Source: an uncultured Planctomycetota bacterium (lineage in GTDB: Bacteria; Planctomycetota; JACOTG01; JAUIME01). From it: DNA of 28,096 bases. The notes under the pieces are model-generated. The model did no database searches. It had not been told where the DNA came from and saw nothing but the letters and a program-made list of their open reading frames with translations. The position numbers and the translations under genes were made by a program. Where the stretch lies: assembly GCA_964597885.1 (NCBI GenBank), contig CAZQZX010000067.1, positions 1 through 28,096 on the forward strand. The letters are read 5' to 3'. Of the stretch, positions 1,905 through 23,903 are shown in pieces (position 1 is the stretch's first letter; each line of letters starts with the position of its first letter).

Positions 1905-4331
1905 CTAGAGCACGCGAAGCTCCGCGGACTTGGCCTTTCGGCTCTTTCGCTTGCGGGCTTCTTCTTCCTCGAGCAGGCGCAGGATCTCGGCCTTCGAACG
2001 ATCCGAGTGCAACAGATCGATCAGGTCGCGGCGCGCCGATTCGTTCGACTGCTCGACCGCCTCGATCTGGCGCTTCATGATCGCCTTGAGCACCTCGTCG
2101 CTCATCTCGTTCCGGTTGACCTGGGCCGACTCGAGCGCCTTCTTCAACGGGATGATCTGTTGCTGGTGCTCGCCACGCATTCGATCGGTCTGCGAGAGCA
2201 GCTCGACGAGCTTCGCTTGGAGCGCCTTCGTGCGAGCTCGTTCCTTCGCGAGCTCCGCCTCGAGCTTGGCTTGAGCCGCCTTGAGATCGTGCTGCACATG
2301 TTCATTCTTCGCCTGCTGCGCGCGAATCTTCTGCATCGCGGCGATCTCGCGATCCCGGGCGCGCATCTCTTCGGCTCGCGCTTCTTCGATCGCGCGAAGC
2401 TCGTCGTACGCCCGGCGCTTCTGATCGTCGCGACGCTGTTTCTCGGCAGCGCGGCCTTCCTCGATCGCGCGAAGCTCGTCGTACGCCCGGCGCTTCTGAT
2501 CGTCGCGACGCTGATTCTCTTCGTAGGCGCGACGTTCGTTGTACGCGCGCTTCTCTTCGTAGGCGCGCTTCTCCTTGTACGCACGCTCCTCGTGCGCGAG
2601 GCGTTCCTCGAGCTCACGCTGCAGATCGTGCAGGTGCGCTTCCCGCGCGCGGATCTCTTCGTGCATCCGACGCTCGCGCTCCGAGATCTCGCGCTGCAGG
2701 GCTTCCTCGCGGGCGCGGATCTCTTCGTGCATCTGCCGCTCGCGGGCTTCGATCTCGCGAGCGAGATGCATCTCCTTGGCTTCGATCTCCCGCGCGAAGT
2801 TCCTCTCACGCGCTTCGATCTCCCGCGCGAGGTCCTTCTCGCGCGACTCGATCTCGCGAACGACCCGCTCGCGGGCCTCGAGCTCACGGGCGAGATCTTT
2901 CTCGCGCATCGCGTCCTCGATGCGGGCCCGTTCGCGCCTCTGGAGCTCGCGAGCCTTCTCCAGCTCGAGGATGACGCGCTTGTTCTTCTCGCTACCATGC
3001 TCGTCATAACGCGCGCGGGCCTCGTCGAGCTTGGCGCGAAGAGCCACTTCGTGGAGCTGCAGCTCGCGCACTCGCGCCCGCTCCGCCTGCATTCGTTCGA
3101 AGACTTCCGCCTTCTTCTTGTGCTCGGCGAGCACCTTCAGCTCTTCGGCGATCGCGGCCGCGCGCGCCGCTTCGGCGGTTTGCTTCGCGACCATCGCCTG
3201 GCGAGCTTCCAGCTCCGCCTGCTTTGCGAGCATCAGGTTCTCTTGCGCGGCCTTCTCGGCGAGGATCAGGTTCCTCTTGGCGGCCGCGATCTCTTCCTTC
3301 GCCTTCTCGTTCTTTTCGGGGGGGCAAGCCACGGCCGGTCGCATCGCGACGAACGCGAGTGCGGCCACGGCGACGAGCACCAGCGGCACGGCCCAGCCGA
3401 CCGCTCGGCCGGCGGAGTCGCGCTCGGCGCCGACAATCCGTCGAATTCTCTTCATCAGGGGTCCTCCAGTCGATGACATGGCCAAACGGTTCACGGGTCC
3501 GGTGTGGGGGCTGCGCAGCCCGTCCAGCGTCAAGAGTGCCCTCGCGTAAGCAAGAGCCTCGCCGCGGCGTCCCGCGGCGGCATCGTCACAGCAGTATTCG
3601 CGTTCCACCCGGATGCGGTTCGAAACCCACCACACGGCCGGATGGAAGAAGAACGTCGATTCGAAAGCAGCCTGCACGAGATTCACGAGCCCGTCGTGCC
3701 GACGCACGTGGGCGAGCTCGTGAAGGATCACCGCGCGGAGCTGCTCGGGAGGGAGCGCCGTCAGAGCGCTGGCCGGAAGCAGGATCACGGGACGCAGCCA
3801 GCCGACGACGATCGGCACGTGCGTGAGGCCCGACTCGAGGACGCGCACCGGCCGCGAGATGCGCCATCGCCGCGCCGTCTCCCGAACGAGCGAGCGGACC
3901 GCGGCCGGAGCCACACGTACGTTCTTGCGTCGAAGTCGAAGCGCGTAGGTCCAGTGAAGCACCACTCGCACGTGAAACAGGATCGCGCCGGCGCCCCAGA
4001 ATGCGGTGAGCATCGCGTAGAGCCACGGGATCTCACGCGCGCCTTCGAAGCTCTGCGTCAAGAGCGCGAGCGATTCCTCGCCGAGCGGCGGGACGTCAGC
4101 GACCGGCCGGACCGAAAGCACGAAGAACGTCGAGAGCGGCGCGAGGATCATCGCGATCATCGCCGCGAGCGAGACGGCGTAGCGCGCTTCAGGCGTCGAT
4201 CGCCGGAGCAGATGGAGGCCGAGCGCGAGCACGGCGGCGATCGCGGTTCCCTGCCACAGGAAGTGCAGGAACGTCAGGCCGGCGCTCTCGACGAGCGAGC
4301 TCCAGTCGATGTCGAAGTGAAGGGTCGGCAT
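1905..4331 (-). CDS. BlaR1/MecR1-family M56 metallopeptidase membrane protein. The N-terminal 4-TM domain carries an HEXXH motif. The C-terminal roughly 480 aa form a highly charged coiled-coil/single-alpha-helix-like repeat region with no recognisable sensor domain.
   Basis: The N-terminus has multiple hydrophobic helices and HELAHVRRHD (HEXXH) as in BlaR1 M56 peptidases. The start codon overlaps the stop of the upstream BlaI-like gene (ATGA at 4329-4333). The C-terminal half is E/R/K/A-rich with repeated units such as LAREIEARER and RAYEEKRAYNERRAYEE, and the protein ends without a globular domain. Confidence 0.8.
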   Translation of the reverse strand: MPTLHFDIDWSSLVESAGLTFLHFLWQGTAIAAVLALGLHLLRRSTPEARYAVSLAAMIAMILAPLSTFFVLSVRPVADVPPLGEESLALLTQSFEGAREIPWLYAMLTAFWGAGAILFHVRVVLHWTYALRLRRKNVRVAPAAVRSLVRETARRWRISRPVRVLESGLTHVPIVVGWLRPVILLPASALTALPPEQLRAVILHELAHVRRHDGLVNLVQAAFESTFFFHPAVWWVSNRIRVEREYCCDDAAAGRRGEALAYARALLTLDGLRSPHTGPVNRLAMSSTGGPLMKRIRRIVGAERDSAGRAVGWAVPLVLVAVAALAFVAMRPAVACPPEKNEKAKEEIAAAKRNLILAEKAAQENLMLAKQAELEARQAMVAKQTAEAARAAAIAEELKVLAEHKKKAEVFERMQAERARVRELQLHEVALRAKLDEARARYDEHGSEKNKRVILELEKARELQRRERARIEDAMREKDLARELEARERVVREIESREKDLAREIEARERNFAREIEAKEMHLAREIEARERQMHEEIRAREEALQREISERERRMHEEIRAREAHLHDLQRELEERLAHEERAYKEKRAYEEKRAYNERRAYEENQRRDDQKRRAYDELRAIEEGRAAEKQRRDDQKRRAYDELRAIEEARAEEMRARDREIAAMQKIRAQQAKNEHVQHDLKAAQAKLEAELAKERARTKALQAKLVELLSQTDRMRGEHQQQIIPLKKALESAQVNRNEMSDEVLKAIMKRQIEAVEQSNESARRDLIDLLHSDRSKAEILRLLEEEEARKRKSRKAKSAELRVL
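2386..2515. repeat. intragenic direct repeat, 75-bp period x2, with a roughly 51-bp core identical in both copies
   Basis: tcgatcgcgcgaagctcgtcgtacgcccggcgcttctgatcgtcgcgacgctg occurs at 2386-2438 and again at 2461-2513. The period of 75 nt equals 25 codons and encodes ...QRRDDQKRRAYDELRAIEE... twice in the minus-strand protein. Confidence 0.8.
2508..2910. repeat. intragenic short tandem repeats (18-bp units around 2508-2590; 33-bp units x~8 around 2640-2910, with a 66-bp super-period)
   Basis: Degenerate 18-bp units (cttctcttcgtaggcgcg / cttctccttgtacgcacg) encode KRAYEE repeats. The 33-bp units (cgcttcgatctcccgcgcgaagttcctctcacg / cgcttcgatctcccgcgcgaggtccttctcgcg ...) encode AREIEARERxx repeats. 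gcgcggatctcttcgtgcatc recurs at about 2647 and 2713. Confidence 0.65.
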
Positions 4332-8327: not shown

Positions 8328-9137
8328 ATGACCACGCAAATCCCGATTTTCCAGGTAGATGCGTTCACGGACCGTCCCTTCGGTGGGAACCCGGCAGCCG
8401 TGTGCCCGCTCGAAAGCTGGCTTCCGGACGACCTTCTGCAGAAGATCGCCCTCGAGAATCACCTATCGGAAACCGCGTTCCTTCTACCCAAGCAAGAAGA
8501 CTTCGAACTGCGTTGGTTCACCCCTGCCGTCGAGGTCGATCTCTGTGGGCACGCCACACTTGCAGCCGCTTGGGTCGTCTTCGAGAAGCTCACCGAAGGG
8601 CGCTCCGAGGTGCGATTTCACACGCGCAAGAGCGGCACCCTGACGGTGACGCGCGACGGGAGCCGGCTCGTGCTCGATTTCCCGAGCCGTCCGCCGAGCC
8701 CGCGCGAGGGCGATCTCGACGCGGTGGCGGAGGCACTCGGCGCCCGGCCGACCGCCCTCCTCGAGTCGCGGGATTGGGTCGCGGTATTCGAGCGAGAGAC
8801 CGACGTCGCCGCGCTCGCGCCCGACATGCAGCGCGTGACCGACCTCGGCTGCTTCGCGATCATCGCGACCGCGCCCGGCACCGATGCGGATTTCGTCTCC
8901 CGCTTCTTCGGTCCGAGGGCCGGCGTCCCCGAGGACCCGGTCACCGGCTCGGCGCACTCGACGCTTATCCCCTACTGGGCGAAGCGCCTGGGCAAGAGCG
9001 ATCTCTTCGCGCGGCAGATCTCCGCCCGCGGTGGCGAGCTCCACTGCACGGATCGCGGCGACCGGGTCTCGATCGCCGGCGATGCCGTCCTCGTCCTCGA
9101 GGGGACGTTCCTTCTCGACGGCGTTGCGGGCTCATGA
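8328..9137 (+). CDS. PhzF-family (phenazine biosynthesis-like) isomerase-fold protein
   Basis: MTTQIPIFQVDAFTDRPFGGNPAAVC...ETAFL...DLCGHATLAAAWV matches the PhzF/YddE DAP-epimerase-like family. The stop overlaps the next gene's start (ATGA 9134-9137). Confidence 0.85.
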   Translation: MTTQIPIFQVDAFTDRPFGGNPAAVCPLESWLPDDLLQKIALENHLSETAFLLPKQEDFELRWFTPAVEVDLCGHATLAAAWVVFEKLTEGRSEVRFHTRKSGTLTVTRDGSRLVLDFPSRPPSPREGDLDAVAEALGARPTALLESRDWVAVFERETDVAALAPDMQRVTDLGCFAIIATAPGTDADFVSRFFGPRAGVPEDPVTGSAHSTLIPYWAKRLGKSDLFARQISARGGELHCTDRGDRVSIAGDAVLVLEGTFLLDGVAGS

Positions 9138-10585
9138 CGGACCCGTCCGACCGCTCCGAGCCCATTCCCTTCGACCTCTCACCGGAGGAGATGCGCAAGC
9201 TCGGCTACGACGTGATCGACCGGATCGTCGAGCACTTCGAGACTGTCCGCGAGCAGCGCGTGACGCAGAAGATCACCCGAGCCGACGCCCGCGCGCGGTT
9301 CGCCGAGCTCCCTCCCGAGCACGGCGCCGACGCCGCGTCGATCGTCCGCGAGACCGTCGAGGGCGTGCTCGCGAACGCGATGCGACTCGACCATCCGCGC
9401 TTCTTCGCCTACATCCCGAGCCCGCACAACTACGTGAGCGTTCTCGCGGAGGCCCTCGTCGCGGGATTCAATCCGTTCGGGGGAACCTGGCAGGCAGCGT
9501 CCGGTCCGACGTCCATCGAGCTTCTCACGATCGAATGGCTGCGCCGGCTCGTCGGGCTTCCCGAGTCCGCGGGCGGGATCTTCGTGAGCGGCGGGTCGAT
9601 GGCCAACCTCCTCGGACTCGCCCTCGCCCGACACGCTCGCGCCGGCGGCGTCACGAAGGACTCCGTCGTCTACACGTCCGATCAGACCCACTCGTCGATC
9701 GATCGCGGTCTTCGCACGCTCGGCTTCGCGGACGACCAGCTCGTGAAGGTCGAGAGCGACGACGCGTTTCGCATCCGTGTCGATGCGCTCGAAGCGGCCG
9801 TCGCCGAAGATCGGGCCGCCGGCCGCCGGCCGCTCGCCGTCGTCGCGAACGCGGGAACGACGAGCACCGGAAGCGTCGACCCGATCGCCCGGCTCGCCGA
9901 TCTGTGCGACCGCGAAGGGCTCTGGCTTCATGCCGACGGCGCCTACGGGCTCGCGGCCGTTCTCTCGGACGAGGGTCGACGGGATCTCGAAGGGATCGAG
10001 CGCGTCGACTCCTGCTCGTTCGATCCGCACAAGTGGTGGTTCCAGCCGATCGAGACCGCGTGCCTGCTCGTGCGGGACGGTGCCGGGCTTCGTGACGCGT
10101 TCCGGATCCTCCCGGCGTACCTCGAGGACACGCAGGGCGCCGAGGAAGAAGTGAACCTGTGCGACTACGGCGTGCAGCTCACGCGGACGAGCGCCCGCGC
10201 GCTGAAGCTCTGGATGTCGATCAAGACGTTCGGCCTCGCCGACTTCCGGCGCGCGATCGATCGCGGACTCGAGCTCGCGCGCCACGCCGAGGCTCGGATC
10301 GACGCATCCCCCCGATGGGAAGTCGTGTCCCCGGCGCGCCTCGGAATCGTCGCCTTCCGATACCTCCCCGACGGGACCGGACGCGAGGACCCGGCCGATC
10401 TCCACGCCGAGATCGTGAAGGAAGTGTACCGCGAGGGATTCGCGATGCTCAGCTCGACCGTGCTCGCCGGCCGACCGGCCCTGCGCCTGTGCACGATCAA
10501 TCCGCGCACGACCGAGGACGACATCGACCGCACCCTCGCGCACCTCGAAACCGTCGCGGCGCGAATCCTCGCCCGTCCGGCTTGA
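9134..10585 (+). CDS. group II pyridoxal-phosphate-dependent decarboxylase (aromatic-L-amino-acid / glutamate decarboxylase family)
   Basis: The 484-aa protein starts at MTDPSDRSEP. The PLP-lysine motif SFDPHKWWFQP and a GSMANLLGL region are typical of Pfam Pyridoxal_deC. The 727-aa track ORF at 8402 is a different-frame read-through and was ignored. Confidence 0.85.
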   Translation: MTDPSDRSEPIPFDLSPEEMRKLGYDVIDRIVEHFETVREQRVTQKITRADARARFAELPPEHGADAASIVRETVEGVLANAMRLDHPRFFAYIPSPHNYVSVLAEALVAGFNPFGGTWQAASGPTSIELLTIEWLRRLVGLPESAGGIFVSGGSMANLLGLALARHARAGGVTKDSVVYTSDQTHSSIDRGLRTLGFADDQLVKVESDDAFRIRVDALEAAVAEDRAAGRRPLAVVANAGTTSTGSVDPIARLADLCDREGLWLHADGAYGLAAVLSDEGRRDLEGIERVDSCSFDPHKWWFQPIETACLLVRDGAGLRDAFRILPAYLEDTQGAEEEVNLCDYGVQLTRTSARALKLWMSIKTFGLADFRRAIDRGLELARHAEARIDASPRWEVVSPARLGIVAFRYLPDGTGREDPADLHAEIVKEVYREGFAMLSSTVLAGRPALRLCTINPRTTEDDIDRTLAHLETVAARILARPA

Positions 10586-14234: not shown

Positions 14235-17200
14235 TCATCGACCTTGGTGAAGCGCATGCACGGTGAGATGCATCTCGTGCTCGAGAGCGCGGCCCTTCGC
14301 GTCACGGATCGACCATGTCACGTGTGCTTGCATCGCAGGCGCGACGTCTTCGATTCGAAGACGCACCGTCTTCGCATCCGCCGCAAGCTCGACCGAATCG
14401 ATTCGCCATTCGGTACGCCGATCCTCTCGGCCGTCGAGGTCGTACGTCGCGGATCCATAGTCGGCCGTTCGGCGATAGTTCCACGCCAGAGCCGACCAGT
14501 TCCCGGGATCGCTCGCCGACGCCTCGTCGAGGCGATGGAGGAACGTCAGCGCGAGGCCGTCCGATGTCGCGCGAAGCGCGACCGGTACGTTGAGGCTCTC
14601 GGACCACGCATCGACGCGCGGTCGAATGCGGTAGAAGCCGCCCGGCGCGGTGCGATCGCTCGACCAGCCGAACAGTCCGCACACGTAGAGGTCGCCCGTC
14701 GCGGGATGGATCTTTCCCGCGAGCAGCCCCGTCGGGAACTGCAGCCCGAGCTTCACGATGCCGCCCTGCGCGATCGGCTCGCGGCCCTCGACCGGGACAT
14801 CGTCACGCAGCACGAGGTACACATCGCCCGTTCCGTACGACAGACCGAGAATCGATCCTTGGAGCGGCCCCCACGCCGGGTGATCGACGTACAGCTGCGA
14901 GGACGGAGAGCGATCGAACGTGGGATGCATCCAGCAGAGCGGCGGCTCGTACGGAGCATCGTCCGGCCACGGCTCCTGCACGCGCTCGCCGTCGCGCTCG
15001 ATGCGTCGCGTTCCGCCGCCGGCCGCCCAGCCGTTGCCGTAGAAACGCGGCGCCGCGCGCGCCCCCGAAGTCGGTCGAATCAGGTTGATGCGATTCGCCG
15101 GCGTCCAGTGTCCCTCCTGGTCGGAACCGAGCAGCGATCCGTCCGGAAGGATGCCGAGGCCGATCGGCGCACGGAATCCGCGCGCGACGACTTCCGATTC
15201 GGCCCCGTCTGAAGAAACTCGGATCACGGTGCCGTGATGATCGTGCGCCGCGAGCTTCGCGTGGCGCGCCGCCTTGTGATAGTAGAGACTCCCGTCCGGC
15301 GCGAAGAGCAGTCCCGATGCCGGCTCGTGGAAGTGCTCGCCGTTTCGGTTCGCGTTCGTGAAGCACTCGAGCGCGTCCGCCTCGCCGTCGCGGTTGCGAT
15401 CGACGAGCCGCGTGATCTGATCGCGACCGAGCACGAGCGCCTCGCCGCCTTCGCGCACGGCGACGCCGAAGGGCTGGTTGAGCCCCGTAGCGGTCCGCGT
15501 CCATCGAAGCTCGTTGAGGTCTTCGTCCAGACCGTCGACGCGCCAGACGTCTCCCGACCACGTCGCGATGAGCGCCGACGTCGGTCCACTCGCGCTCGCG
15601 TCGGGAATGAAGTCGAACGCACCGAATCGCAGCCACGAGTCGAACGGGTTCTCGGCCGGCCACGTGAGCTGATCGATGCGGAACGGTCGCGCCGCCCCGA
15701 CGGTTTCCTCGAGCGCGCGGCGCGTCCAGGCCTCGACCGTCGAGCGAGGACCGCGGCGACTCGAGATCGCGACCTCGACGTCCGCATCGGAGCGCGGCAG
15801 CGTGAGGACGGCCTTTGTCCCGTCGATCCGCACCGTCGCGGCCGCGCCGTTCGACGACGGGCCCTTAACGCCCTGACGCGACGCTTCGCGAACGATCCTC
15901 GCCTCGACGATCGGTTCTCCCGACATCGCCGCGACTCCGGCCATCGCCCCGTCGTCGACGCATGCGCCGAGCAACAGCAGACCGTCCATGTAGCCGCTGA
16001 ACCTCGACACCTCCGGGAAGTCCTCGTTCGTCCATCCGAATCGAGGGCGAAATGCAGAGCGACTCTCCTCCCGCCCGAACGGGAGCGCACGCGAGGCCAC
16101 GCGCGCGCCGTCGACGAACAGTCTCACCTCGCCGCTGTCGTGACGCCACGTCGCGGCGACATGGTGCCAGGATCCGTCGGCGATCTCCGGGCCTCCTTGA
16201 ACGACGCCGACCCAACCGACGTCGAAGGTGAGTTGCCCGCCCCGGAGGAACAGCGTGACGCCGTCCGGGCACCAGCTTCCTTCCGGAGGCGACACGGCGA
16301 ACACCGTCCCGTCGCTCGTCGTGTGGATCCAAGCGGCCACGGTCAGGTCCTGCTCGCCGAGATCGACGAGCTCGGTCTCGACCCAAGCCGCTGCCGTCCC
16401 GTCAAAGTCGAGCGACCGGCCCGTCACGCCTCGACGCCACGTCACGCCGTCGAGGCGCAGGTCGTCCCTGTCGCGGAAGGCATTTCGCTCGTACGCGCCG
16501 CTTCCGCGATCCGAAGGCCACCAGCCGATCGGGGAGGCTCGCGTGAGGTCGGGCGCAGACGCTCCGACGGACGAGAGCACCACCGCGGGCAATGGCTGCC
16601 TCGCCGTGGCCGGAGACGCATCGAGCAGCTCGACCGACGCGCCGCCGGACAGATCGATCTCTCGGGCGTCGGCCCCCGCAGCGTGCACGATGCGGCGCTC
16701 GTCGCGATCGTCGAACGTCATCCCGACGACGCCTCGCGTCACGAGCGGATCGCCCCACCGCGAACGCGCTCGCTCGATGGCGGTATGAATGTCGTCGCTC
16801 AGCGACGCAGGCGGGTCGGCAACCCCGGCGGCACCCACGCGCAGGTGGAACGCGCCACGTCGCGGCCCGCGCCAGGCGGACGCGCGGCCGAGAACAGGCA
16901 CGGCCTCCGCGTCGCCGAACGCACGAGTCGCACCGCGATCGTCCGACGCGGAAGTCATCGCGAAGATCGGCCCGGCGGATGAACCCTCCGACGACTTGCC
17001 GGCAGGCTCGACGGTGACCTCGCGCACGAACGCGAGCCCGTCCCCGGTGCGCTCCGCGAAGACGCGCTCGAAGATCGTGTACGCACCCTCGCCAACGGCG
17101 TACGAGAGGATGACGTCGTCGCCATCGAGGTGGAGGCCCGACCATCGGCCGAACGACGACGGGATCGGACCGAACGGCTCGTCGCGCGGATCTTCATCGA

Positions 17201-18632
17201 GACGGGAGACATCCGTCGGCGTGACACCGGGCAGCGCGTCCGCCCGCAGCAGCGGCTCGCCGCGAATGCGCGGAAACGTTCCATGCGGTCCGTCGAAGAC
17301 GATGCCGCGAAGCTCGAGCTCGCCGCGCCACACACATCGCCATGCGAGCAGGTCCGTGTCGAAGACGGCCTGAAGGTCCGTGGGCTCTCCGTCCGGGGTT
17401 CGCAGACGAAGAACGATGCCCTTGTGCACCGGCGGCAGGTCCGGCCCGATGCCGACCGCTGTCGACAGGAACGGGCCGTAGTCCATCCGCTCCCACGGAG
17501 CGTCGCCACCACCGAGCTCTTCGTCCTCCTCCTCCTCTTCGTCGAACGACGTCGTCGCGGGACGCGACTCACCCTCGGGCATCGCACGGTGCGGCCACGC
17601 CGGGGTGTCGGGAGGATCGTCGAGGAACGGGGACTCGCCGAGCGCGAAGTCCTCGGGCTTGAGCTCGAGCTCGGCAAACCACTCGTCCTCTTCGATGAAC
17701 CCGTAGAAGCTCGGATAGAACGGATCGACAAAGTCGACATTCGCGCGCGCCGGCACCTCGAGCCCGGTCAGGCTGTAGCACGCGTTCACGACGAGTCGAC
17801 GCAGCCCCTCGGAGACGAAGTCGACAGACGCTCCCGCCGTCGTGCAGAACGAACGCCCCGTCGTCCGACCGTTCGGCGCGGTGTACGTGTGGAGCCACGC
17901 GAGCGCCTGCATGGGATCGTTCTCTTCACCGGCGACGTTCGCCGAGTCCGGGTGAAGCGATTCGGTGACGGCGCCGCGCATCAGGATCGTGTCGGCATCC
18001 GTCAGGTTCTCGACGCCGTACACATCCGAAGGCGCAAAGACGTTGTCCACGCCGCGCAGGATCGGATGGTCGGCGTTCGCGGCTTCGATCACGCCCCGGC
18101 AACCTTCGAACTTGTGTCCACCGTGGTGGCGCACCCAGCGCTCGCCGAGGACGCGGATGCCGAAGTCACCGAAGGCGATCGCGTCCTTCCCGCTTCCGAA
18201 CCGACCACGTCCCGCGAAGGCGTGCGTCGCCGTGCGCAGTCCGATCACGGGCTTGCCGGCATCGAGGAAGCGCGTCACGTGCGCCGCAGCGGCCGCGTCC
18301 GGACGACGAAAGCGCGTGGCGATCACCATCAGCTCCGCGTCGTCGAGCGCCTCGAGACCGCGCAGCCCTTCCTGGTGGTTCGGATCGATGTAGTCGTCCG
18401 TCCACGAGAAGAGGACCGTGCAGTCGAAGCCGTGTCGCTCCGCCAGGATCTTGGCGAGCATCGGCATCGACTCCTCCGAGCGGTACTCCTCGTCGCCGGC
18501 CACGAGAACGATGCGCTTGCCGGAGCCGGGTCCGGGGCGGCCCTCGAAGGAAAGTCGATCGGCGGCGGTCGCTCGCGACGCCGAGAGGGCCTGGCAGACC
18601 AGGACGATGAGGATGCAGGAAAGGCTCTTCAG
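14235..18632 (-). CDS. giant secreted multidomain protein: signal peptide, ThuA-like (class-I glutamine-amidotransferase-like) domain, LamG/concanavalin-like domain, and glucose/sorbosone-dehydrogenase-like beta-propeller plus C-terminal domain. The conservative GTG start is at 18503; the probable start is further upstream.
   Basis: There is one continuous GC3-rich frame of about 4.4 kb. Upstream of the first GTG (18501-18503) the frame stays open back to a TAG and encodes a classic signal peptide (L)KSLSCILIVLVCQALSASRATAADRLSFEG. The only candidate initiator is CTG at 18630-18632, preceded by GGAGAC. LamG-like signatures appear in the middle (...WHHVAATWRHDSGEVRLFVDGARV...). SGDH/PQQ-propeller-like strings follow (GLNQPFGVAV..., LLFAPDGSLYY...). 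Confidence 0.7.
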   Translation of the reverse strand: MKSLSCILIVLVCQALSASRATAADRLSFEGRPGPGSGKRIVLVAGDEEYRSEESMPMLAKILAERHGFDCTVLFSWTDDYIDPNHQEGLRGLEALDDAELMVIATRFRRPDAAAAAHVTRFLDAGKPVIGLRTATHAFAGRGRFGSGKDAIAFGDFGIRVLGERWVRHHGGHKFEGCRGVIEAANADHPILRGVDNVFAPSDVYGVENLTDADTILMRGAVTESLHPDSANVAGEENDPMQALAWLHTYTAPNGRTTGRSFCTTAGASVDFVSEGLRRLVVNACYSLTGLEVPARANVDFVDPFYPSFYGFIEEDEWFAELELKPEDFALGESPFLDDPPDTPAWPHRAMPEGESRPATTSFDEEEEEDEELGGGDAPWERMDYGPFLSTAVGIGPDLPPVHKGIVLRLRTPDGEPTDLQAVFDTDLLAWRCVWRGELELRGIVFDGPHGTFPRIRGEPLLRADALPGVTPTDVSRLDEDPRDEPFGPIPSSFGRWSGLHLDGDDVILSYAVGEGAYTIFERVFAERTGDGLAFVREVTVEPAGKSSEGSSAGPIFAMTSASDDRGATRAFGDAEAVPVLGRASAWRGPRRGAFHLRVGAAGVADPPASLSDDIHTAIERARSRWGDPLVTRGVVGMTFDDRDERRIVHAAGADAREIDLSGGASVELLDASPATARQPLPAVVLSSVGASAPDLTRASPIGWWPSDRGSGAYERNAFRDRDDLRLDGVTWRRGVTGRSLDFDGTAAAWVETELVDLGEQDLTVAAWIHTTSDGTVFAVSPPEGSWCPDGVTLFLRGGQLTFDVGWVGVVQGGPEIADGSWHHVAATWRHDSGEVRLFVDGARVASRALPFGREESRSAFRPRFGWTNEDFPEVSRFSGYMDGLLLLGACVDDGAMAGVAAMSGEPIVEARIVREASRQGVKGPSSNGAAATVRIDGTKAVLTLPRSDADVEVAISSRRGPRSTVEAWTRRALEETVGAARPFRIDQLTWPAENPFDSWLRFGAFDFIPDASASGPTSALIATWSGDVWRVDGLDEDLNELRWTRTATGLNQPFGVAVREGGEALVLGRDQITRLVDRNRDGEADALECFTNANRNGEHFHEPASGLLFAPDGSLYYHKAARHAKLAAHDHHGTVIRVSSDGAESEVVARGFRAPIGLGILPDGSLLGSDQEGHWTPANRINLIRPTSGARAAPRFYGNGWAAGGGTRRIERDGERVQEPWPDDAPYEPPLCWMHPTFDRSPSSQLYVDHPAWGPLQGSILGLSYGTGDVYLVLRDDVPVEGREPIAQGGIVKLGLQFPTGLLAGKIHPATGDLYVCGLFGWSSDRTAPGGFYRIRPRVDAWSESLNVPVALRATSDGLALTFLHRLDEASASDPGNWSALAWNYRRTADYGSATYDLDGREDRRTEWRIDSVELAADAKTVRLRIEDVAPAMQAHVTWSIRDAKGRALEHEMHLTVHALHQGR

Positions 18633-18994
18633 GGGTCGGTCTCCGCGCTCGGGTCGGGGTTTGCCGGCATTCTAGCGCACGCGCGAATCCGGGATCGCCG
18701 ACACGCGAGAGAAAAAGATTCGGTTTCGTGTCACGAACCGCGTCCGCCCCATCCCCCCGTAGAGGGCCAGTTGCCTGGCCCTGCGCAGGAAGGAGATGGA
18801 TTCGATTGGCTGTCGAGTCCCATGGGCGACGCGACGGTGTCGCCAGTAGCCTCGCACCTTCGTAGGCGGCTCCCCTCTCTCGGGGGCCGCCTACGGAAGC
18901 GCCGCCGGACCGCACGTCCGGCACCTCCCGGCCGGCCCGGCCGGCCCGGCCCGTGATCCCGAACCCGTTTCTTCGCGCGCTCCATTGACGCCCC

Positions 18995-19045
18995 TCGAGC
19001 TTGTGATACACTTGTGTCTTATTTGAGACGATAAAACTCGCAAGC
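18995..19045 (+). promoter_or_regulatory. AT-rich candidate promoter/operator upstream of the tetR-family gene
   Basis: cttgtgatacacttgtgtcttatttgagacgataaaactcg is unusually AT-rich for this window. It has a TTGTGA -35-like hexamer and short dyads (ACACttGTGT; GTCTtatttgAGAC), and lies just upstream of the AGGAG RBS at 19047-19051. Confidence 0.3.
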
Positions 19046-19059
19046 CAGGAGTGAGCGTC

Positions 19060-19692
19060 ATGCCCGCCGGACGAAGCGAAAAATCCCGCAATGCCATCCT
19101 CGAGGCAGCCGCAGCGCTGTTCTCGCGGAATCCGGGGGCCTCGCTCTCGGAAGTGGCCGAGACGGCCGACGTGGGACGCGCCACCCTCCACCGGCACTTC
19201 GCCTCGCGAGAGGACCTGATCCGCACGCTGGCTCTCGACGCGCTCCGGCGTACCGACGAGGCCACCGAGCACATCGAGCGCGAAGCCAAGAGCGCCGTTC
19301 ACGCCATGCAGCTGATGATCGAAGCCGTGGTCCCGCTCGGCGATCACTTTCACTTCCTCGCCACCGAGCCCGCGGCGCAGCGCGACCCCGAGATCGAGGC
19401 CGTGTATCGCCGCCAGCTCGATGAGGTCGCGGAGCTCGTCGAAGCCATGCGCGGCGAGGGCGCCGTCGGACAGGACCTGCCGACACCGTGGGTCGCTGCA
19501 ACCATCGACGCACTCATCTACACCGCGTGGACCGCCGTCCGCGAGGGATCGATTGCGCGCAACGACGCCGCCACGCTCGTCTTTCGAACGCTCCTTTCGG
19601 GGATCGGGCCCGAGCCCGCCGCCGGATCGAGCGTCGCCCCGTCCGGGAGTCCGGGACGCACGACGAAGAAGAAGAGAGGAGACCAGTCATGA
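19060..19692 (+). CDS. TetR/AcrR-family transcriptional regulator
   Basis: The N-terminal HTH is NAILEAAAALFSRNPGASLSEVAETADVGRATLHRHF. AGGAG lies 8 nt upstream of the ATG at 19060; the track's GTG at 19051 is less likely. The stop overlaps the next gene's start (ATGA 19689-19692). Confidence 0.85.
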   Translation: MPAGRSEKSRNAILEAAAALFSRNPGASLSEVAETADVGRATLHRHFASREDLIRTLALDALRRTDEATEHIEREAKSAVHAMQLMIEAVVPLGDHFHFLATEPAAQRDPEIEAVYRRQLDEVAELVEAMRGEGAVGQDLPTPWVAATIDALIYTAWTAVREGSIARNDAATLVFRTLLSGIGPEPAAGSSVAPSGSPGRTTKKKRGDQS

Positions 19693-21614
19693 GATCCCCC
19701 ATCCGCCACGGCGCCATCCTTCTGTCGCTGCTCCTGCTCGTGTCCGTCGCAACGGCGACGGAGCCCGTCGAAGCCTCGCGCGTGCAGGACCTCCGCGCGC
19801 TCGATCTCGACGGCAAGATTCGCCGGCCCGGCACCGAGAACGGCGTTCGCCCGATCGCGCTCGTCTTCCTCGACACCGAATGCCCGATCTCGAATCGATA
19901 TCTCCCGCGGCTCGGTGAGATCGCGCAGGCTGCCGGCAAGCTCGAGGTCGACTTCTTCGGCGTGCTCTCCGATCCGAGCCTCTCGCGGGCGAAAGCTCTC
20001 GAGTACCGCAAGGAGTACGAGATCCGCTTCCCGATCCTCTTCGACACGACCGGCGAGATCGCCGCACGGCTCAAGCCGACGCACGTTCCGGAGGCGTTCG
20101 TGATCGACGCGCGCGATCGGGTGGCCTACCGCGGGCGCATCGACGATCAGTTCGCCGCGATCGGCCGGCCGCGCGCGAGGGTCAGCTCCCACGATCTGAA
20201 AACGGCGATCGAAGCCACGGCCGCCGGGCGTGATCCCGCGAGCCGACACGAGCCGCCGGTCGGATGCATCTTCGAAGCGTGGAACACGGCCGCCGAGGAA
20301 GCGAACGAGATCACCTACGCGCGCCACATCGCGCCGATCCTCGCGACGCAGTGCGTGGACTGCCACCGCCCCGGCGACATCGGCCCGTTCTCGCTCACGA
20401 CGTATGAGCAGGCCAGGCGCCGCGCCAAGATGATCGCCGCCGTCTGCGAGGATCGCGTGATGCCGCCCTGGCACGCCGAGCCCGGTGCGCACTCCTTCCG
20501 CGACGAGCGCATCCTCTCCGATCGCGAGATCGCGATGCTGCGGAGGTGGGCGGACCACGGTGCGCCGCGCGGCGATGAGGCCGACCTCGTCCGGGTTGCC
20601 GCATCCGAGAAGGATTCCGGCTGGCGACTCGGCAAGCCCGACCTCGTCCTGACGATGCCCGAGCCCTTCGAGGTGCCCGCGTCCGGCGAAGACATTTATC
20701 GCTACTTCGTGATCCCGAGCGGAGTCACGAAGGACCGCGCGGTCTCGGGCTTCGAGTTTCGACCCGGTGACGCCACCGTCGTCCATCACGCGATCGCGTT
20801 CGTCGACTACACCGGCACCGCGCGCAAGCTCGACGCCAAGGACCCCGCACCGGGCTTCACGATGTTCGGGAACACGAACGATCTCATGGAGATCGAGGAT
20901 CTCGGCGGCGTGGGCGGGTGGGCTCCCGGTTCGGAGCCGTACGAGCTTCCCGATGGCCTCGCGATGGAGCTGCGCGCCGGAGGCGACATCGTCCTCGAGG
21001 TGCACTATCACCTGAGCGGCAAGAAGACGACCGACCAGAGCACCGTCGCCCTGTTCTACTCCGAAGACCCGGACGTTCGATTCGTCGACACCGTGGTGAT
21101 CGGCACGCAGTACGTGGACATCAAGCCCGGGGACGACGCGTACCGGCGCTACGTCTACATGGACGTGCCGGTGGACATGCGAATCATCGACATCGGTCCG
21201 CACATGCACTTCATCGGGCGCGACGTCGAGGTGACGGTCACCTTCGCGGACGGAACGAAGCACTCGCTTCTGAGCGTGCCGCGATGGGACTTCCGCTGGC
21301 AGAGCGTCTACGTGTATCGCGAGCCCGTTCGCATCCCCGCCGGAAGCCGGATCGAGGCGACGTTCACGTTCGACAACTCGGCCGACAACCCGGCGAACCC
21401 GAGCTCACCACCCGGCCGCGTGCGATGGGGATGGGGCACGAAGGACGAGATGTGCGAGATCTACGTCACGATGCTGCCCGATGATCCGCGTCATGCCAGT
21501 CAGCTGGAGTGGGCGTCGTACGCGTCGTGGCTCCGTCCCGCGCAGCCGAAGAAGGACGACCGCGGTGCCGCGAGCTCAAGGCGCGCAGGGACTCCCGCTC
21601 CGGCAGGCGGTTGA
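19689..21614 (+). CDS. secreted three-domain redox protein: AhpC/TSA-redoxin-like domain, mono-heme cytochrome c (CVDCH) domain, and copper type II ascorbate-dependent monooxygenase (PHM/DBH)-like domain
   Basis: It has a signal peptide (MRSPIRHGAILLSLLLLVSVATA). The redoxin-like region has a single Cys (FLDTECPIS). A CXXCH motif, QCVDCH, lies at 20352-20366. Copper-site-like motifs follow in order: VVHHAIAF (HH), LEVHYH (H), GPHMHFIG (H-x-H) and KDEMCEIYVTM (the Met ligand in an EMC context, as in PHM DEMCNLY). Confidence 0.8.
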   Translation: MRSPIRHGAILLSLLLLVSVATATEPVEASRVQDLRALDLDGKIRRPGTENGVRPIALVFLDTECPISNRYLPRLGEIAQAAGKLEVDFFGVLSDPSLSRAKALEYRKEYEIRFPILFDTTGEIAARLKPTHVPEAFVIDARDRVAYRGRIDDQFAAIGRPRARVSSHDLKTAIEATAAGRDPASRHEPPVGCIFEAWNTAAEEANEITYARHIAPILATQCVDCHRPGDIGPFSLTTYEQARRRAKMIAAVCEDRVMPPWHAEPGAHSFRDERILSDREIAMLRRWADHGAPRGDEADLVRVAASEKDSGWRLGKPDLVLTMPEPFEVPASGEDIYRYFVIPSGVTKDRAVSGFEFRPGDATVVHHAIAFVDYTGTARKLDAKDPAPGFTMFGNTNDLMEIEDLGGVGGWAPGSEPYELPDGLAMELRAGGDIVLEVHYHLSGKKTTDQSTVALFYSEDPDVRFVDTVVIGTQYVDIKPGDDAYRRYVYMDVPVDMRIIDIGPHMHFIGRDVEVTVTFADGTKHSLLSVPRWDFRWQSVYVYREPVRIPAGSRIEATFTFDNSADNPANPSSPPGRVRWGWGTKDEMCEIYVTMLPDDPRHASQLEWASYASWLRPAQPKKDDRGAASSRRAGTPAPAGG

Positions 21615-23051
21615 TCCGGACGGCAGCCCGTACAGGAACGTCCAGAGCGGTACCTCGTAGATGTCCTCGAAGAGCGTCTCTCGGATACGCTTCTTCGTCG
21701 TTCCCTGGGTGAGGAGATAGCCCGAACGGCACTTCTCCTTGCCCATGAACGAGCACAGATCCTGGATGTCGTCCGGCATCGCGTCGGGCCGGTAGGCGAG
21801 CGCGAGAGGGATGACCTCCTTGTCCGTCTCGAGCACGGCGTCGACGTAGACCTCGCGCGTTCCGAGGCGATCGCGGTAGTGATGAAGCTTCCAGCCGCGA
21901 TCGCGCGCGAGCTCTCCGAGGTGCGTCATGAGCACGGTGCGCGCGAGCGTGTCGAGCTCGGACGGTCGCTGCAGATACTCTTCCCCGCGCATCAACACCG
22001 CGTTGCGAAGGCTGCCGTCCACCACGTAGATCTGCGGACGCGAGCGAAGACCCTTCGTCGACTTCCCCCGGAAGTTCCGCACGAGGTAGATCAGCAGCGT
22101 GCTCTCCATGTGCTGGATGTACTGCGACACGGTCGAGCGCGCGATCCCGAGGCTGATCGCGAGGTCCGACAGGTTGAAGCGGTTGCCGGTCTGCAGCGCG
22201 ATGTGGATGAACAGCCGCTCGAGCTCCGGAAGATTCTGCGCACCGTAAATGTGCGCCATGTCGCGGAAGAGAATTCGCTCGACGACATCCTCGCGCAGGT
22301 GCTTCTGGATCAGCGACGGGCTCCGTCCCATGTGCGCGACTTCGGGGAAACCGCCGCGGAGCAGGAACTCGTTGAACAGCGGGATGAGCGTCCGATTCGT
22401 GTGATGGTTCTCGAGGAGATCCTCGGGATCGATTCGCGGCGGCTCGGCGCTCAGAAAAGCAGGGGCGTCGATCCGGCTGCCCGGTCTCACAATCGAGACA
22501 AACTCGCGAAAGCGCAGCGTCGGCAGCCGAAGGTTGTGCCACTGTGCCGGGTCGAAGCGCGAGCGCCCCTTGGGTTTCATTCCCTCGGCGAACGTACCCG
22601 TGGCCACGATGTGCGACGGGATGTTGTCGCGCCGCGTGACGAGATCGACGCCTTTGGTCCAGTCCCTCGACGCGTGCACCTCGTCGAGCAGGAACGTGCA
22701 GCTACGCGCGGATCCGAGCACGTTCTTCAGATAGAAGCGGACCAGGTCCTCGAAGTCCGTGAGCTGGATCAGAGGGTGGTCGAGCGCCACGTAGAAGATC
22801 GATCGCGGATCCGTACCGCGCTCGAGGAGCTCCTGGACGAGCTGATGCAGGAGCGTCGTCTTTCCCACCCGTCGCGGCCCGGTCAAGAGCACGCGTGCGT
22901 CCGCCCGGTCGTCCGCGACGAGCGCCGAGAGGTCTCCGAGCGCCTCGCGCGCTACCGGCGGAGCATGTTCCTTGGGAACTTTGCCGGTGCTCCACCACGG
23001 GTTGTATCCGTGCAGAACGCCATGCACGGAGTCGGGCTGGACTGGAAACAT
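21576..23051 (-). CDS. AAA+ superfamily ATPase (COG1373-like; AAA_14 + DUF4143-type architecture)
   Basis: A P-loop (GPRRVGKTT) and a Walker B-like motif (FLLDEVH) are followed by a winged-helix-like C-terminal region. The plausible start is MFPVQPDSVHGVL... (ATG 23049-23051); the upstream GTG in the track is less likely. The 3' end overlaps the convergent monooxygenase gene by 39 nt. Confidence 0.7.
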   Translation of the reverse strand: MFPVQPDSVHGVLHGYNPWWSTGKVPKEHAPPVAREALGDLSALVADDRADARVLLTGPRRVGKTTLLHQLVQELLERGTDPRSIFYVALDHPLIQLTDFEDLVRFYLKNVLGSARSCTFLLDEVHASRDWTKGVDLVTRRDNIPSHIVATGTFAEGMKPKGRSRFDPAQWHNLRLPTLRFREFVSIVRPGSRIDAPAFLSAEPPRIDPEDLLENHHTNRTLIPLFNEFLLRGGFPEVAHMGRSPSLIQKHLREDVVERILFRDMAHIYGAQNLPELERLFIHIALQTGNRFNLSDLAISLGIARSTVSQYIQHMESTLLIYLVRNFRGKSTKGLRSRPQIYVVDGSLRNAVLMRGEEYLQRPSELDTLARTVLMTHLGELARDRGWKLHHYRDRLGTREVYVDAVLETDKEVIPLALAYRPDAMPDDIQDLCSFMGKEKCRSGYLLTQGTTKKRIRETLFEDIYEVPLWTFLYGLPSGSTACRSGSPCAP

Positions 23052-23164
23052 GGGGCGACGATTGTAATGAGTTTCGGTTGGAGAGAAGAGGGGAAAATCC
23101 GAAGTCGGTGGCGCCTCGCGAATTGACCGCACGCACCGCGAACGCGACGTCCGCGCGTCCGGCG

Positions 23165-23812
23165 TTATCCGCGTTTGCCCCGGTCGCGCGCGCGCTCAGC
23201 GAGCAACGCTTCGATCGCCGACTCGAGCTGTTCGATCGGAGCCGCGTTGTTGAGATCGGCGAAGCGCAACGTCCCTTCGTGATCGATCAGGTGCAGGTCG
23301 GGATAGCCGTCCACGTAGTACGCGGCCGCGGTACGATTCCCTTGTGCTTCGATCCCGATCGGATACTCGATATTGTGTTGCTTCACGTAACCCGCCACCT
23401 TGTGCGCGTCACGATCCGTATGCACGCCGAGCACCACGAGGCCCTGGTCGGCGTACTTGCGGTGAAGCTCCTTCATGACGGGAGTGAGCTTCTTGCAGGG
23501 GCCGCACCACACGCCCCAGAAGTCGAGGAGCACCACGGACCCGCGCAGGGACGCGATCGAGAGGCCGCGTCCGTTCAGGGTCGCCCGAAGCTGCAGCTCC
23601 GGAGCCGGCATCCCCTGGATCTTCGCGAGGCGCGCTCGCTGTCGGGAGCCCCCCTCGAAGGGGATGGGCAGTCGCGGCTCGATCGCGGCAGGAGTCGATT
23701 CGGTCGCGACGACATCGCCCTCCGAGCTACCGCCGCATCCGGCGACGAGGGGCAACGTCCAAACGGTCAGGAACAGCACAAGCAGAGGCCGAGCGCCCGT
23801 GAAACGTGACAA
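23165..23812 (-). CDS. TlpA/ResA-family thiol-disulfide oxidoreductase lipoprotein (thioredoxin fold)
   Basis: The lipobox is LVAGC, the active site is WCGPC, and the fold matches TlpA-like proteins. The start codon at 23812 is TTG, preceded by AGGGAG 9 nt upstream. Confidence 0.8.
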   Translation of the reverse strand: MSRFTGARPLLVLFLTVWTLPLVAGCGGSSEGDVVATESTPAAIEPRLPIPFEGGSRQRARLAKIQGMPAPELQLRATLNGRGLSIASLRGSVVLLDFWGVWCGPCKKLTPVMKELHRKYADQGLVVLGVHTDRDAHKVAGYVKQHNIEYPIGIEAQGNRTAAAYYVDGYPDLHLIDHEGTLRFADLNNAAPIEQLESAIEALLAERARDRGKRG

Positions 23813-23903
23813 GGATTTCGTCTCCCTGGATCGATGCTTTTCTCCTCCGCCGGCGCCATCATAGCACGGAATCCGCGGATCGCCCGGAGACGCGGCACGG
23901 CGG

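Follow-up and report, generated by a model that had tools for sequence, protein, structure and literature searches.

The question raised by this locus is what a bacterium might do with a redoxin-like domain, a heme c site and the ligands of a two-copper monooxygenase when all three are carried on a single exported chain, encoded directly behind the gene for a TetR repressor. The locus occupies positions 19060–21614 of a 28,096-nucleotide stretch of DNA from an uncultured Planctomycetota bacterium (GenBank assembly GCA_964597885.1, contig CAZQZX010000067.1); this whole stretch is referred to below as the window. Our preferred answer, in which we have reasonable but not strong confidence, is an inducible periplasmic copper monooxygenase that draws its electrons from a heme c of its own in place of ascorbate and is made from a self-repressed tetR–enzyme operon. 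The relevant copper enzymes are peptidylglycine α-hydroxylating monooxygenase (PHM) and dopamine β-hydroxylase (DBH), with their two copper centres CuH and CuM. In order, the fusion protein consists of a signal peptide, a PRX-like domain, a cytochrome c domain, a PHM/DBH-like two-copper core and a disordered tail (residues 616–641). The features of the two genes are as follows.

19046–19051, forward strand: CAGGAG, ribosome-binding site of tetR, 8 nt before the ATG
19060–19692, forward strand: tetR, from the ATG at 19060 to the TGA ending at 19692, 210 residues
19689–19692, forward strand: ATGA overlap of the tetR stop and the fusion start, with GGAG 8 nt upstream
19689–21614, forward strand: fusion gene, from the ATG at 19689 to the stop ending at 21614, 641 residues
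19689–19757, forward strand: predicted Sec-type signal peptide, residues 1–23, MRSPIRHGAILLSLLLLVSVATA / TE
19776–20285, forward strand: PRX-like thioredoxin-fold domain, residues ∼30–199
19881–19883, forward strand: Cys65, in the motif D-T-E-C-P
20265–20267, forward strand: Cys193, in the motif V-G-C (terminal G-C)
20301–20588, forward strand: monoheme c-type cytochrome-like domain, residues ∼205–300
20352–20366, forward strand: CVDCH, residues 222–226
20460–20471, forward strand: MPPW with Met258, the candidate sixth heme ligand
20640–21068, forward strand: N-terminal jelly-roll, CuH subdomain, residues ∼318–460
20784–20789, forward strand: His366/His367, within VVHH (364–367)
21003–21005, forward strand: His439, within EVHYH (437–441)
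21081–21488, forward strand: C-terminal jelly-roll, CuM subdomain, residues ∼465–600
21201–21209, forward strand: His505-Met-His507, within GPHMH (503–507)
21450–21452, forward strand: Met588, within KDEMC (585–589)

The fusion open reading frame (ORF) is one intact gene and not a frame error, because more than 600 collinear full-length homologues with the same architecture exist. The protein search gave 624 matches among the scored candidates, and the top 120 cover 88–100% of the query at 45–71% identity; an independent ENA contig encodes the identical protein (P0001). The claim of the original prediction that three modules lie in a single gene thus stands, and the positions that it gave for the ATGA overlap (19689–19692) and for CVDCH (20352–20366) all check out. 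The G+C fraction of the locus (0.65–0.69) is in line with that of the remaining window. An AlphaFold2 model calculated from an alignment of 119 sequences has a pLDDT of 91.5 and a pTM of 0.89; residues 1–20 have low pLDDT, with a helix at 8–16. Read from the sequence, the N-terminus has the basic n-region, hydrophobic core and A-x-A of a signal peptide, and similar N-termini were found in all 27 orthologues inspected, from which we infer that the protein is exported to the periplasm. No ccm genes are found in the window.

The C-terminal core is a PHM/DBH-like two-copper domain, as was originally proposed from its motifs, and this is supported by profile, fold and Pfam matches. The Pfam model Cu2_monoox_C matches residues 498–595 of the window protein with 23.7 bits (cutoff 23) and, at E ≤ 0.01, 15 of 29 diverse family members (best E 2.3e-6); Cu2_monooxygen matches 12 of the same 29 at this threshold (best E 9.5e-5). 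A family profile was built from 119 homologues and searched against the PDB sequences. Its residues 340–600 match rat PHM with an E value of 2e-8, and the HMMER alignment to PHM (PDB entry 1yjk) places VVHH on VHH, EVHY on QVHY, PHMH on HTHH and DEMC on DEMC. We take the aligned PHM positions to be the CuH ligands His107, His108 and His172 and the CuM ligands His242, His244 and Met314, so that all six have a counterpart in the fusion protein. His366, His439, His505, His507, Glu587 and Met588 are identical in all 119 homologues and His367 in 118 of them. The copper-ligand motifs noted at the outset are therefore conserved (118–119 of 119), well beyond what chance would give, with one refinement: His441 is replaced by Lys in 13 of the 119, so the ligand within HYH is the first histidine, His439, and not His441. 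The comparison of structures agrees. A Foldseek search of the PDB with the model finds human DBH (PDB entry 4zel) with an E value of 7e-17 and ∼30 PHM entries with E values from 5e-15 to 1e-10, at a TM-score of ∼0.66 normalized to PHM over ∼295 columns. No NCBIfam model covers the copper core.

The heme domain is identified chiefly by its motifs. Cys222, Cys225, His226 and Met258 are identical in 119 of 119 homologues, and the Pfam model Cytochrome_CBB3 matches 22 of the 29 diverse members at E ≤ 0.01 (best E 4.6e-5), in agreement with the CXXCH motif reported at 20352–20366. Modelled alone, residues 196–322 reach a pLDDT of 81.8. Searching the PDB with the heme-domain profile gave marginal matches at the level of the motif only, to a heme site of hydrazine synthase (E 0.007) and to PccH (E 0.0085). 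The assignment as a cytochrome is well supported by motif conservation and only moderately by fold.

What ties the heme to the copper is their pairing across the family. We used the copper domain by itself (residues 320–615) as the query of an exhaustive HMMER search over protein clusters at 50% identity, which gave 9,560 clusters at E ≤ 1e-3, 5,772 at E ≤ 1e-10 and 1,344 at E ≤ 1e-30. Of the domain copies in the best 147 copper-domain relatives, 121 are preceded by 125 residues or more, and every one of these 121 carries a CXXCH motif 93–121 residues (median 97) before the start of the copper domain. The region preceding the cytochrome is of redoxin size in 55 of the 121 copies, and the other 66 have the cytochrome only. 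The cytochrome and the copper domain are thus a fixed, obligatory unit with or without the redoxin domain, and since the 66 copies that have no redoxin-sized region keep the heme and copper residues, the conserved core of the family is heme plus copper.

The same heme–copper core was also seen in other fusions (P0150, P0121, P0229 and P0198/P0213/P0253). In P0150 it bears a C-terminal FGE-sulfatase domain; the formylglycine-generating enzymes of this family are copper-dependent. The further architectures comprise a tandem duplicate with EF-hands, an N-terminal DUF1559 and long C-terminal TPR tails.

The N-terminal domain was originally described as a single-Cys redoxin, and here the description has to be changed: there are two invariant cysteines, Cys65 and Cys193, each identical in 119 of 119 homologues. 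Over residues 36–151 both AhpC-TSA (36.1 bits) and Redoxin (28.8 bits) score above their Pfam cutoffs, and AhpC-TSA matches all 29 diverse members at E ≤ 0.01 (best E 1.3e-12). In the PDB, residues 33–201 of the family profile match entries 2cvb (E 1.6e-17), 2ywi (E 6.5e-16) and 3u5r (E 6.6e-13), and Foldseek with the N-terminal domain finds 2ywo, 2cvb, 2ywi and 3u5r with E values of ∼1e-10 and TM-scores of 0.71–0.78. The position of the first, nucleophilic Cys of a CxxC motif is taken by Asp62 (Asp in 94 of the 119, otherwise Gly or Asn). In the 119 homologues there is no conserved Thr three residues before Cys65 and the motif PxxxTxxC is absent; the NCBIfam models for ResA and StoA score ∼16–19 bits against cutoffs of 170–210. 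The thioredoxin fold is present, and the CxxC and peroxiredoxin catalytic motifs both fail, for which reason neither the name peroxiredoxin nor the name TlpA is appropriate for the domain. It is best called an accessory module, which might deal with peroxide, bind the substrate or handle copper.

The gene upstream encodes a TetR-family protein (TetR_N, 38.5 bits against a cutoff of 24, E 1e-9) with LfrR, the repressor of an efflux pump in M. smegmatis, as its closest solved relative (E 6e-18 over the full length). The neighbourhood of the enzyme gene was surveyed by clustering all ORFs within 7 kb in 79 non-redundant loci, 76 of which have enough sequence upstream for TetR to be counted. A tetR gene adjoins the enzyme gene in 46 of these 76, in 27 as a co-oriented gene directly upstream and in 19 divergently. 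The co-oriented proteins are orthologues of the window TetR, to which they are 34–55% identical along their full length; those encoded divergently fall into another TetR group. An identical ATGA overlap joins the two genes in 21 of the 27 co-oriented loci, from different phyla, and in two more the overlap is 8 nt, which suggests translational coupling. The coupling to TetR that had been read from the window alone is therefore a conserved arrangement. Upstream of tetR there are two further elements.

18985–19012, forward strand: promoter-like site, with −35 TTGACG at 18985–18990, a 16-nt spacer containing TG and −10 TACACT at 19007–19012
19004–19030, forward strand: putative TetR operator, TGATACA-cttg-TGTCTTA at 19004–19021 with a third half-site, TGAGACG, at 19024–19030

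The promoter-like site is the only σ70-like site in 18500–23900 (shuffled sequences give 0.3 on average) and is a match to the consensus only; the putative operator overlaps its predicted −10 element. The 7-mer TGAGACA occurs in 23 of the 27 regions upstream of orthologous tetR genes, mostly as part of the palindrome TGAGACA-N4-TGTCTCA, beside which an everted copy is present in some cases. The exact sequence TGAKACANNNNTGTMTCA is present in 17 loci (18 sites). When its positions were checked against the tetR coordinates, the sites in the cross-checked loci, which do not include L053, were found just upstream of the tetR ORF or over its 5′ end. In the window the putative operator takes the form TGATACActtgTGTCTTA at 19004–19021, with two mismatches and as the only match in 28 kb; by itself this match is not significant (0.58 expected), and it is its position and conservation that carry weight. 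One locus, from an Acidobacteriota metagenome-assembled genome (MAG; L044), has two operators, at 2101–2118 and 2736–2753. One lies upstream of tetR and the second in an unusually long gap of 81 nt between tetR and the enzyme gene, suggesting that the enzyme gene may be repressed separately where translational coupling has been lost.

Between the gene at 14235–18503 and the tetR promoter-like site of the window there is a run made up of G and C only, in which palindromes such as CCGGCCCGGCCGGCCCGG overlap (18918–18951), preceded by a 21-nt imperfect hairpin at 18854–18902. These elements (18854–18951) may be a terminator of the upstream gene or an insulator, or a simple repeat.

From these observations the following mechanism can be proposed. 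The two genes, tetR and one enzyme gene, would form an operon that is shut off by its own TetR, which would sit on the palindrome TGAKACA-N4-TGTMTCA over the −10 element and silence both genes; in the window it is expected to bind TGATACActtgTGTCTTAttTGAGACG within 18985–19035. Derepression would be brought about by a small, probably hydrophobic ligand, likely the substrate or a related compound. In the periplasm the CXXCH domain would receive a covalent heme c in a Ccm-dependent manner, and the C-terminal core would bind two mononuclear coppers, CuH through His366, His367 and His439 and CuM through His505, His507 and Met588. O2 would be activated at CuM and a C—H bond of the substrate hydroxylated, with the second electron coming from CuH. 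CuH would then be re-reduced by the fused heme c, itself fed by periplasmic or respiratory electron carriers, so that the heme would stand in for soluble ascorbate; most bacteria are not known to synthesize ascorbate. Electron delivery by the heme, hydroxylase activity and induction by a small molecule are all inferred from sequence and model.

Several points weigh against this proposal. Of the five Pfam matches in the window protein, AhpC-TSA, Redoxin and Cu2_monoox_C are above cutoff and the other two are below: Cu2_monooxygen (residues 407–441) reaches 13.5 bits where 30 are needed (E 0.087) and Cytochrome_CBB3 (residues 213–263) has an E value of 0.06. A Foldseek search with the isolated heme domain gave no significant match, though the first-listed ones are cytochromes c. 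Heme and copper binding are both read from motifs, and the plausibility of direct transfer hinges on the distance from the heme to CuH. The redoxin domain is left unexplained by the mechanism. With only six Cys in total, the fusion protein lacks the disulfides of PHM, and Arg240, the carboxylate anchor of PHM, is replaced by Thr, Ser, Met, Gly or Leu in the homologues. No adjacent TetR is found in 30 of the 76 loci, and beyond TetR no clue to the substrate is conserved within 7 kb in the 79 loci.

Of the alternatives, the one that survives best keeps the chemistry and changes the target, so that the enzyme would hydroxylate or otherwise oxidize not a small xenobiotic but a protein of the periplasm or a secreted peptide, for example a ribosomally synthesized and post-translationally modified peptide (RiPP). 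We regard this as unlikely. PHM itself modifies peptides, TPR repeats, typical binders of proteins or peptides, are found at the C-terminus of many relatives, and P0150 is fused to an FGE-sulfatase-type domain. In one locus (L008; Rhodospirillales MAG OY770023.1, 627–7014) tetR is closely preceded, on the opposite strand, by a LanM gene and a group of four small genes. The LanM gene encodes a class II lanthipeptide synthetase of 1102 residues with DUF4135 and LANC_like domains, and the small genes, which have weak NHase_alpha Pfam matches, may encode NHLP-type precursors. This RiPP neighbourhood was seen in closely related loci only, however, and did not come up as a recurrent neighbour cluster; a TPR tail is lacking in the window protein, and an LfrR-like TetR points to a small-molecule ligand. 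The residue that anchors the peptide C-terminus in PHM is not conserved; because Arg240 is absent, the substrate is probably not peptidyl-glycine-like and the protein not a strict amidating enzyme. Downstream of the enzyme gene in L008 there are an amidohydrolase gene and genes for a resistance–nodulation–division (RND) pump.

A little less probable is a reversed flow of electrons, in which the copper core would oxidize the substrate and the heme c would pass the electrons to the respiratory chain, making the protein a dehydrogenase or oxidase. The obligatory pairing of cytochrome and copper is silent on direction, no reductase partner is conserved nearby in the surveyed loci, and fused cytochrome c domains are the electron exits of many periplasmic dehydrogenases. 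On the other side, the full CuH/CuM set, including the Met of CuM, is the O2-activating signature of PHM and DBH and is retained in 118–119 of 119 homologues, and no member of the PHM/DBH fold is known to act as a dehydrogenase.

We think it improbable that the protein is primarily a thiol- or heme-based peroxide detoxifier in which the copper-like domain is structural or a metal buffer, a role that would fit the database name ‘redoxin/AhpC-TSA’. AhpC-TSA and Redoxin are the only Pfam matches comfortably above threshold, and Cys65 falls at the second CxxC position of 2cvb, 2ywi and 3u5r, which, after the NCBI CDD, would correspond to that of the peroxidatic Cys of peroxiredoxins. The C-terminal Cys of 2ywi has been described as a possible resolving Cys (PMC3091736). 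Genes for MsrA and YceI adjoin one homologue (L007). Against this reading stand the absence of PxxxTxxC and of a conserved Thr at −3, and the retention of heme and copper residues in the 66 of 121 closest copper-domain relatives that have no redoxin-sized region; the identity of all six ligands in 118–119 of 119 homologues also argues against a degenerate copper domain. That the ORF is an artefact, whether three genes fused through a frameshift or a misassembly or a nonfunctional frame with chance motifs, has nothing in its favour except that high-GC DNA yields many long spurious ORFs, and it is refuted by the independent contig, the collinear full-length homologues, the confident single-chain model and a CXXCH-to-copper spacing that is kept across hundreds of clusters.

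We now return to the proposed copper monooxygenase with its own heme c and to where it is found. In a scan of species-representative genomes, relatives occur in 306 stretches, spanning Planctomycetota, Alpha- and Gammaproteobacteria, Acidobacteriota and Binatia as well as Latescibacterota, Gemmatimonadetes, Verrucomicrobiales and Flavobacteriales. Nearly all are from MAGs; the cultured ones include Sulfidibacter corallicola and Candidatus Uabimicrobium. It is a widespread family, with members in marine Planctomycetota, Proteobacteria and Acidobacteriota, among others. TetR is the only broadly recurrent neighbour. The other neighbours (sulfatase, ABC_membrane_3, DAO oxidoreductase, class-III aminotransferase, arginase-family protein, solute-binding protein and RND pump) each occur in nine loci or fewer, in related lineages.

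Two neighbourhoods may be described individually. In S. corallicola (L005, 9937–12482) the enzyme gene is followed by a 91-residue ORF, the α subunit of a Rieske ring-hydroxylating oxygenase and an FAD/NAD/2Fe-2S reductase; P450 and fatty-acid desaturase genes lie upstream and TetR is divergent. The arrangement, seen in this one genome, resembles a set of clustered oxygenases for hydrophobic substrates. In Alphaproteobacteria MAG loci (L042, L046, L064–L067, L072 and related ones) there are genes for a class-III aminotransferase, an arginase-family hydrolase, a DAO-type FAD oxidoreductase and SBP_bac_8, an amine/polyamine-type neighbourhood that could simply be shared synteny.

The other genes of the window that were considered are the following; the remaining ones are unrelated and of the housekeeping type.

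1905–4331, reverse strand: 808-residue ORF, BlaR1-type M56 peptidase (E 2e-33), with a long C-terminal extension without a match
8402–10585, forward strand: group II pyridoxal phosphate-dependent decarboxylase, 727 residues (Pyridoxal_deC, E 8e-67)
14235–18503, reverse strand: 1422-residue ORF with DUF6797 and Laminin_G_3, ending ∼550 nt before tetR
21576–23132, reverse strand: AAA_14 and DUF4143 ATPase gene, 518 residues, converging on the fusion gene
23165–23812, reverse strand: TlpA-like lipoprotein with a WCGPC motif (ResA subfamily, E 1e-22)

The TlpA-like gene had originally been suggested as a possible partner. It is genuine, and its position is as given, whereas the link to the fusion gene is not supported: when the ORFs of the other 78 non-redundant loci were searched with phmmer, none was homologous to it, and the gene lies on the opposite strand, beyond the unrelated ATPase gene. 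The 3′ ends of the ATPase and fusion genes overlap by 39 nt (21576–21614), within the part encoding the disordered tail of the fusion protein. Group II decarboxylases make the amines that DBH-type enzymes hydroxylate, and the gene at 8402–10585 was considered as an amine supplier in the style of DBH; this is not supported, as it lies ∼8.5 kb from tetR with several unrelated genes between, and the neighbour clusters that recur within 7 kb of the enzyme gene elsewhere include no decarboxylase-sized ORF. Its product has ∼300 residues without a Pfam match before the decarboxylase domain. The product of 14235–18503 is a large multidomain protein typical of Planctomycetota-like genomes.

PHM and DBH are textbook enzymes, which in animals make amidated hormones (PHM) and noradrenaline (DBH); there is still debate on how electrons are supplied and transferred between their two distant coppers. 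A natural version in which heme c is tethered to the coppers, if it is real, would be a self-contained system in which to study this transfer, and it may be more tractable than the animal enzymes because bacterial genes are usually easier to express. It would also extend PHM/DBH chemistry from the secretory vesicles of animals to the bacterial periplasm. PHM has been treated as a eukaryotic family, widespread in eukaryotes only (PMC8812541), and in the full-text literature, with most subscription journals outside its coverage, we found no paper on bacterial heme-fused PHM/DBH-like proteins. The source names of the homologues are all ‘hypothetical protein’ or some ‘redoxin’ or ‘thioredoxin’ label, and a whole oxidative enzyme class would therefore be invisible in genome annotation. 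We rate a bacterial, TetR-controlled PHM/DBH-type core with a built-in cytochrome c donor as a new version of known chemistry. More tentatively, in a proposal that could fall either way with the balance tipped slightly against it, there may be a very large unrecognized bacterial superfamily of copper monooxygenases of the PHM/DBH type, with at least ∼1,300 close clusters at 50% identity, in which a fused cytochrome c replaces ascorbate and wires O2-activating copper to the periplasmic electron pool; its redoxin-bearing branch would be an inducible periplasmic hydroxylase whose substrate is the ligand of a dedicated, co-evolved and translationally coupled TetR, the operator being conserved across phyla. 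As both TetR and operator are conserved, they offer a direct experimental handle: the identity of the inducer should reveal the substrate.

Each part of the system can be compared with something known. The PRX-like domain shares a Y-R/H-G-x-x-D-D motif and the terminal G-C cysteine with the proteins of T. thermophilus (2cvb and 2ywo), G. kaustophilus (2ywi) and S. meliloti (3u5r). These are standalone and uncharacterized, whereas here the domain is part of a fusion; 2cvb and 2ywi have C-N-H-C-P at the active site, and in 3u5r the first Cys is a Ser. The repressor is like LfrR in its full-length similarity, its helix–turn–helix domain and a palindrome over the promoter of its own operon, and in some genomes RND pump genes lie directly downstream of the enzyme gene. 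It differs in its predicted target, which is a periplasmic redox enzyme in place of, or alongside, a pump, and binding to the palindrome is predicted. PccH, a monoheme cytochrome of Geobacter sulfurreducens (PDB entry 4rlr), is free-standing, while the heme domain here lies within a fusion; the two are only modestly similar, with no significant Foldseek match, and Met258 is a presumed axial ligand.

The closest comparison is with PHM and DBH, with which the fusion protein shares the double jelly-roll catalytic core and all six ligands (CuH His-His-His and CuM His-His-Met, invariant here), together with the DEM around the Met of CuM. The sequence identity is only ∼17%, and the fusion protein is bacterial and periplasmic where PHM and DBH are eukaryotic and of the secretory pathway. 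Of the three PHM residues that contact the peptidyl-glycine, only the position of Tyr318 is kept, as Tyr or Trp; that of Asn316 is Glu (80 of 119) or Leu. The DOMON and PAL domains are missing, and the protein has a PRX-like domain, regulation by TetR and a fused cytochrome c, which we propose takes the place of ascorbate. Finally, cytochrome c-fused NirK and the cellobiose dehydrogenase that feeds lytic polysaccharide monooxygenases have copper folds and chemistries unrelated to those considered here, and no homology is implied; the analogy is one of design, in which a tethered or dedicated heme donor spares the copper enzyme a diffusible reductant.

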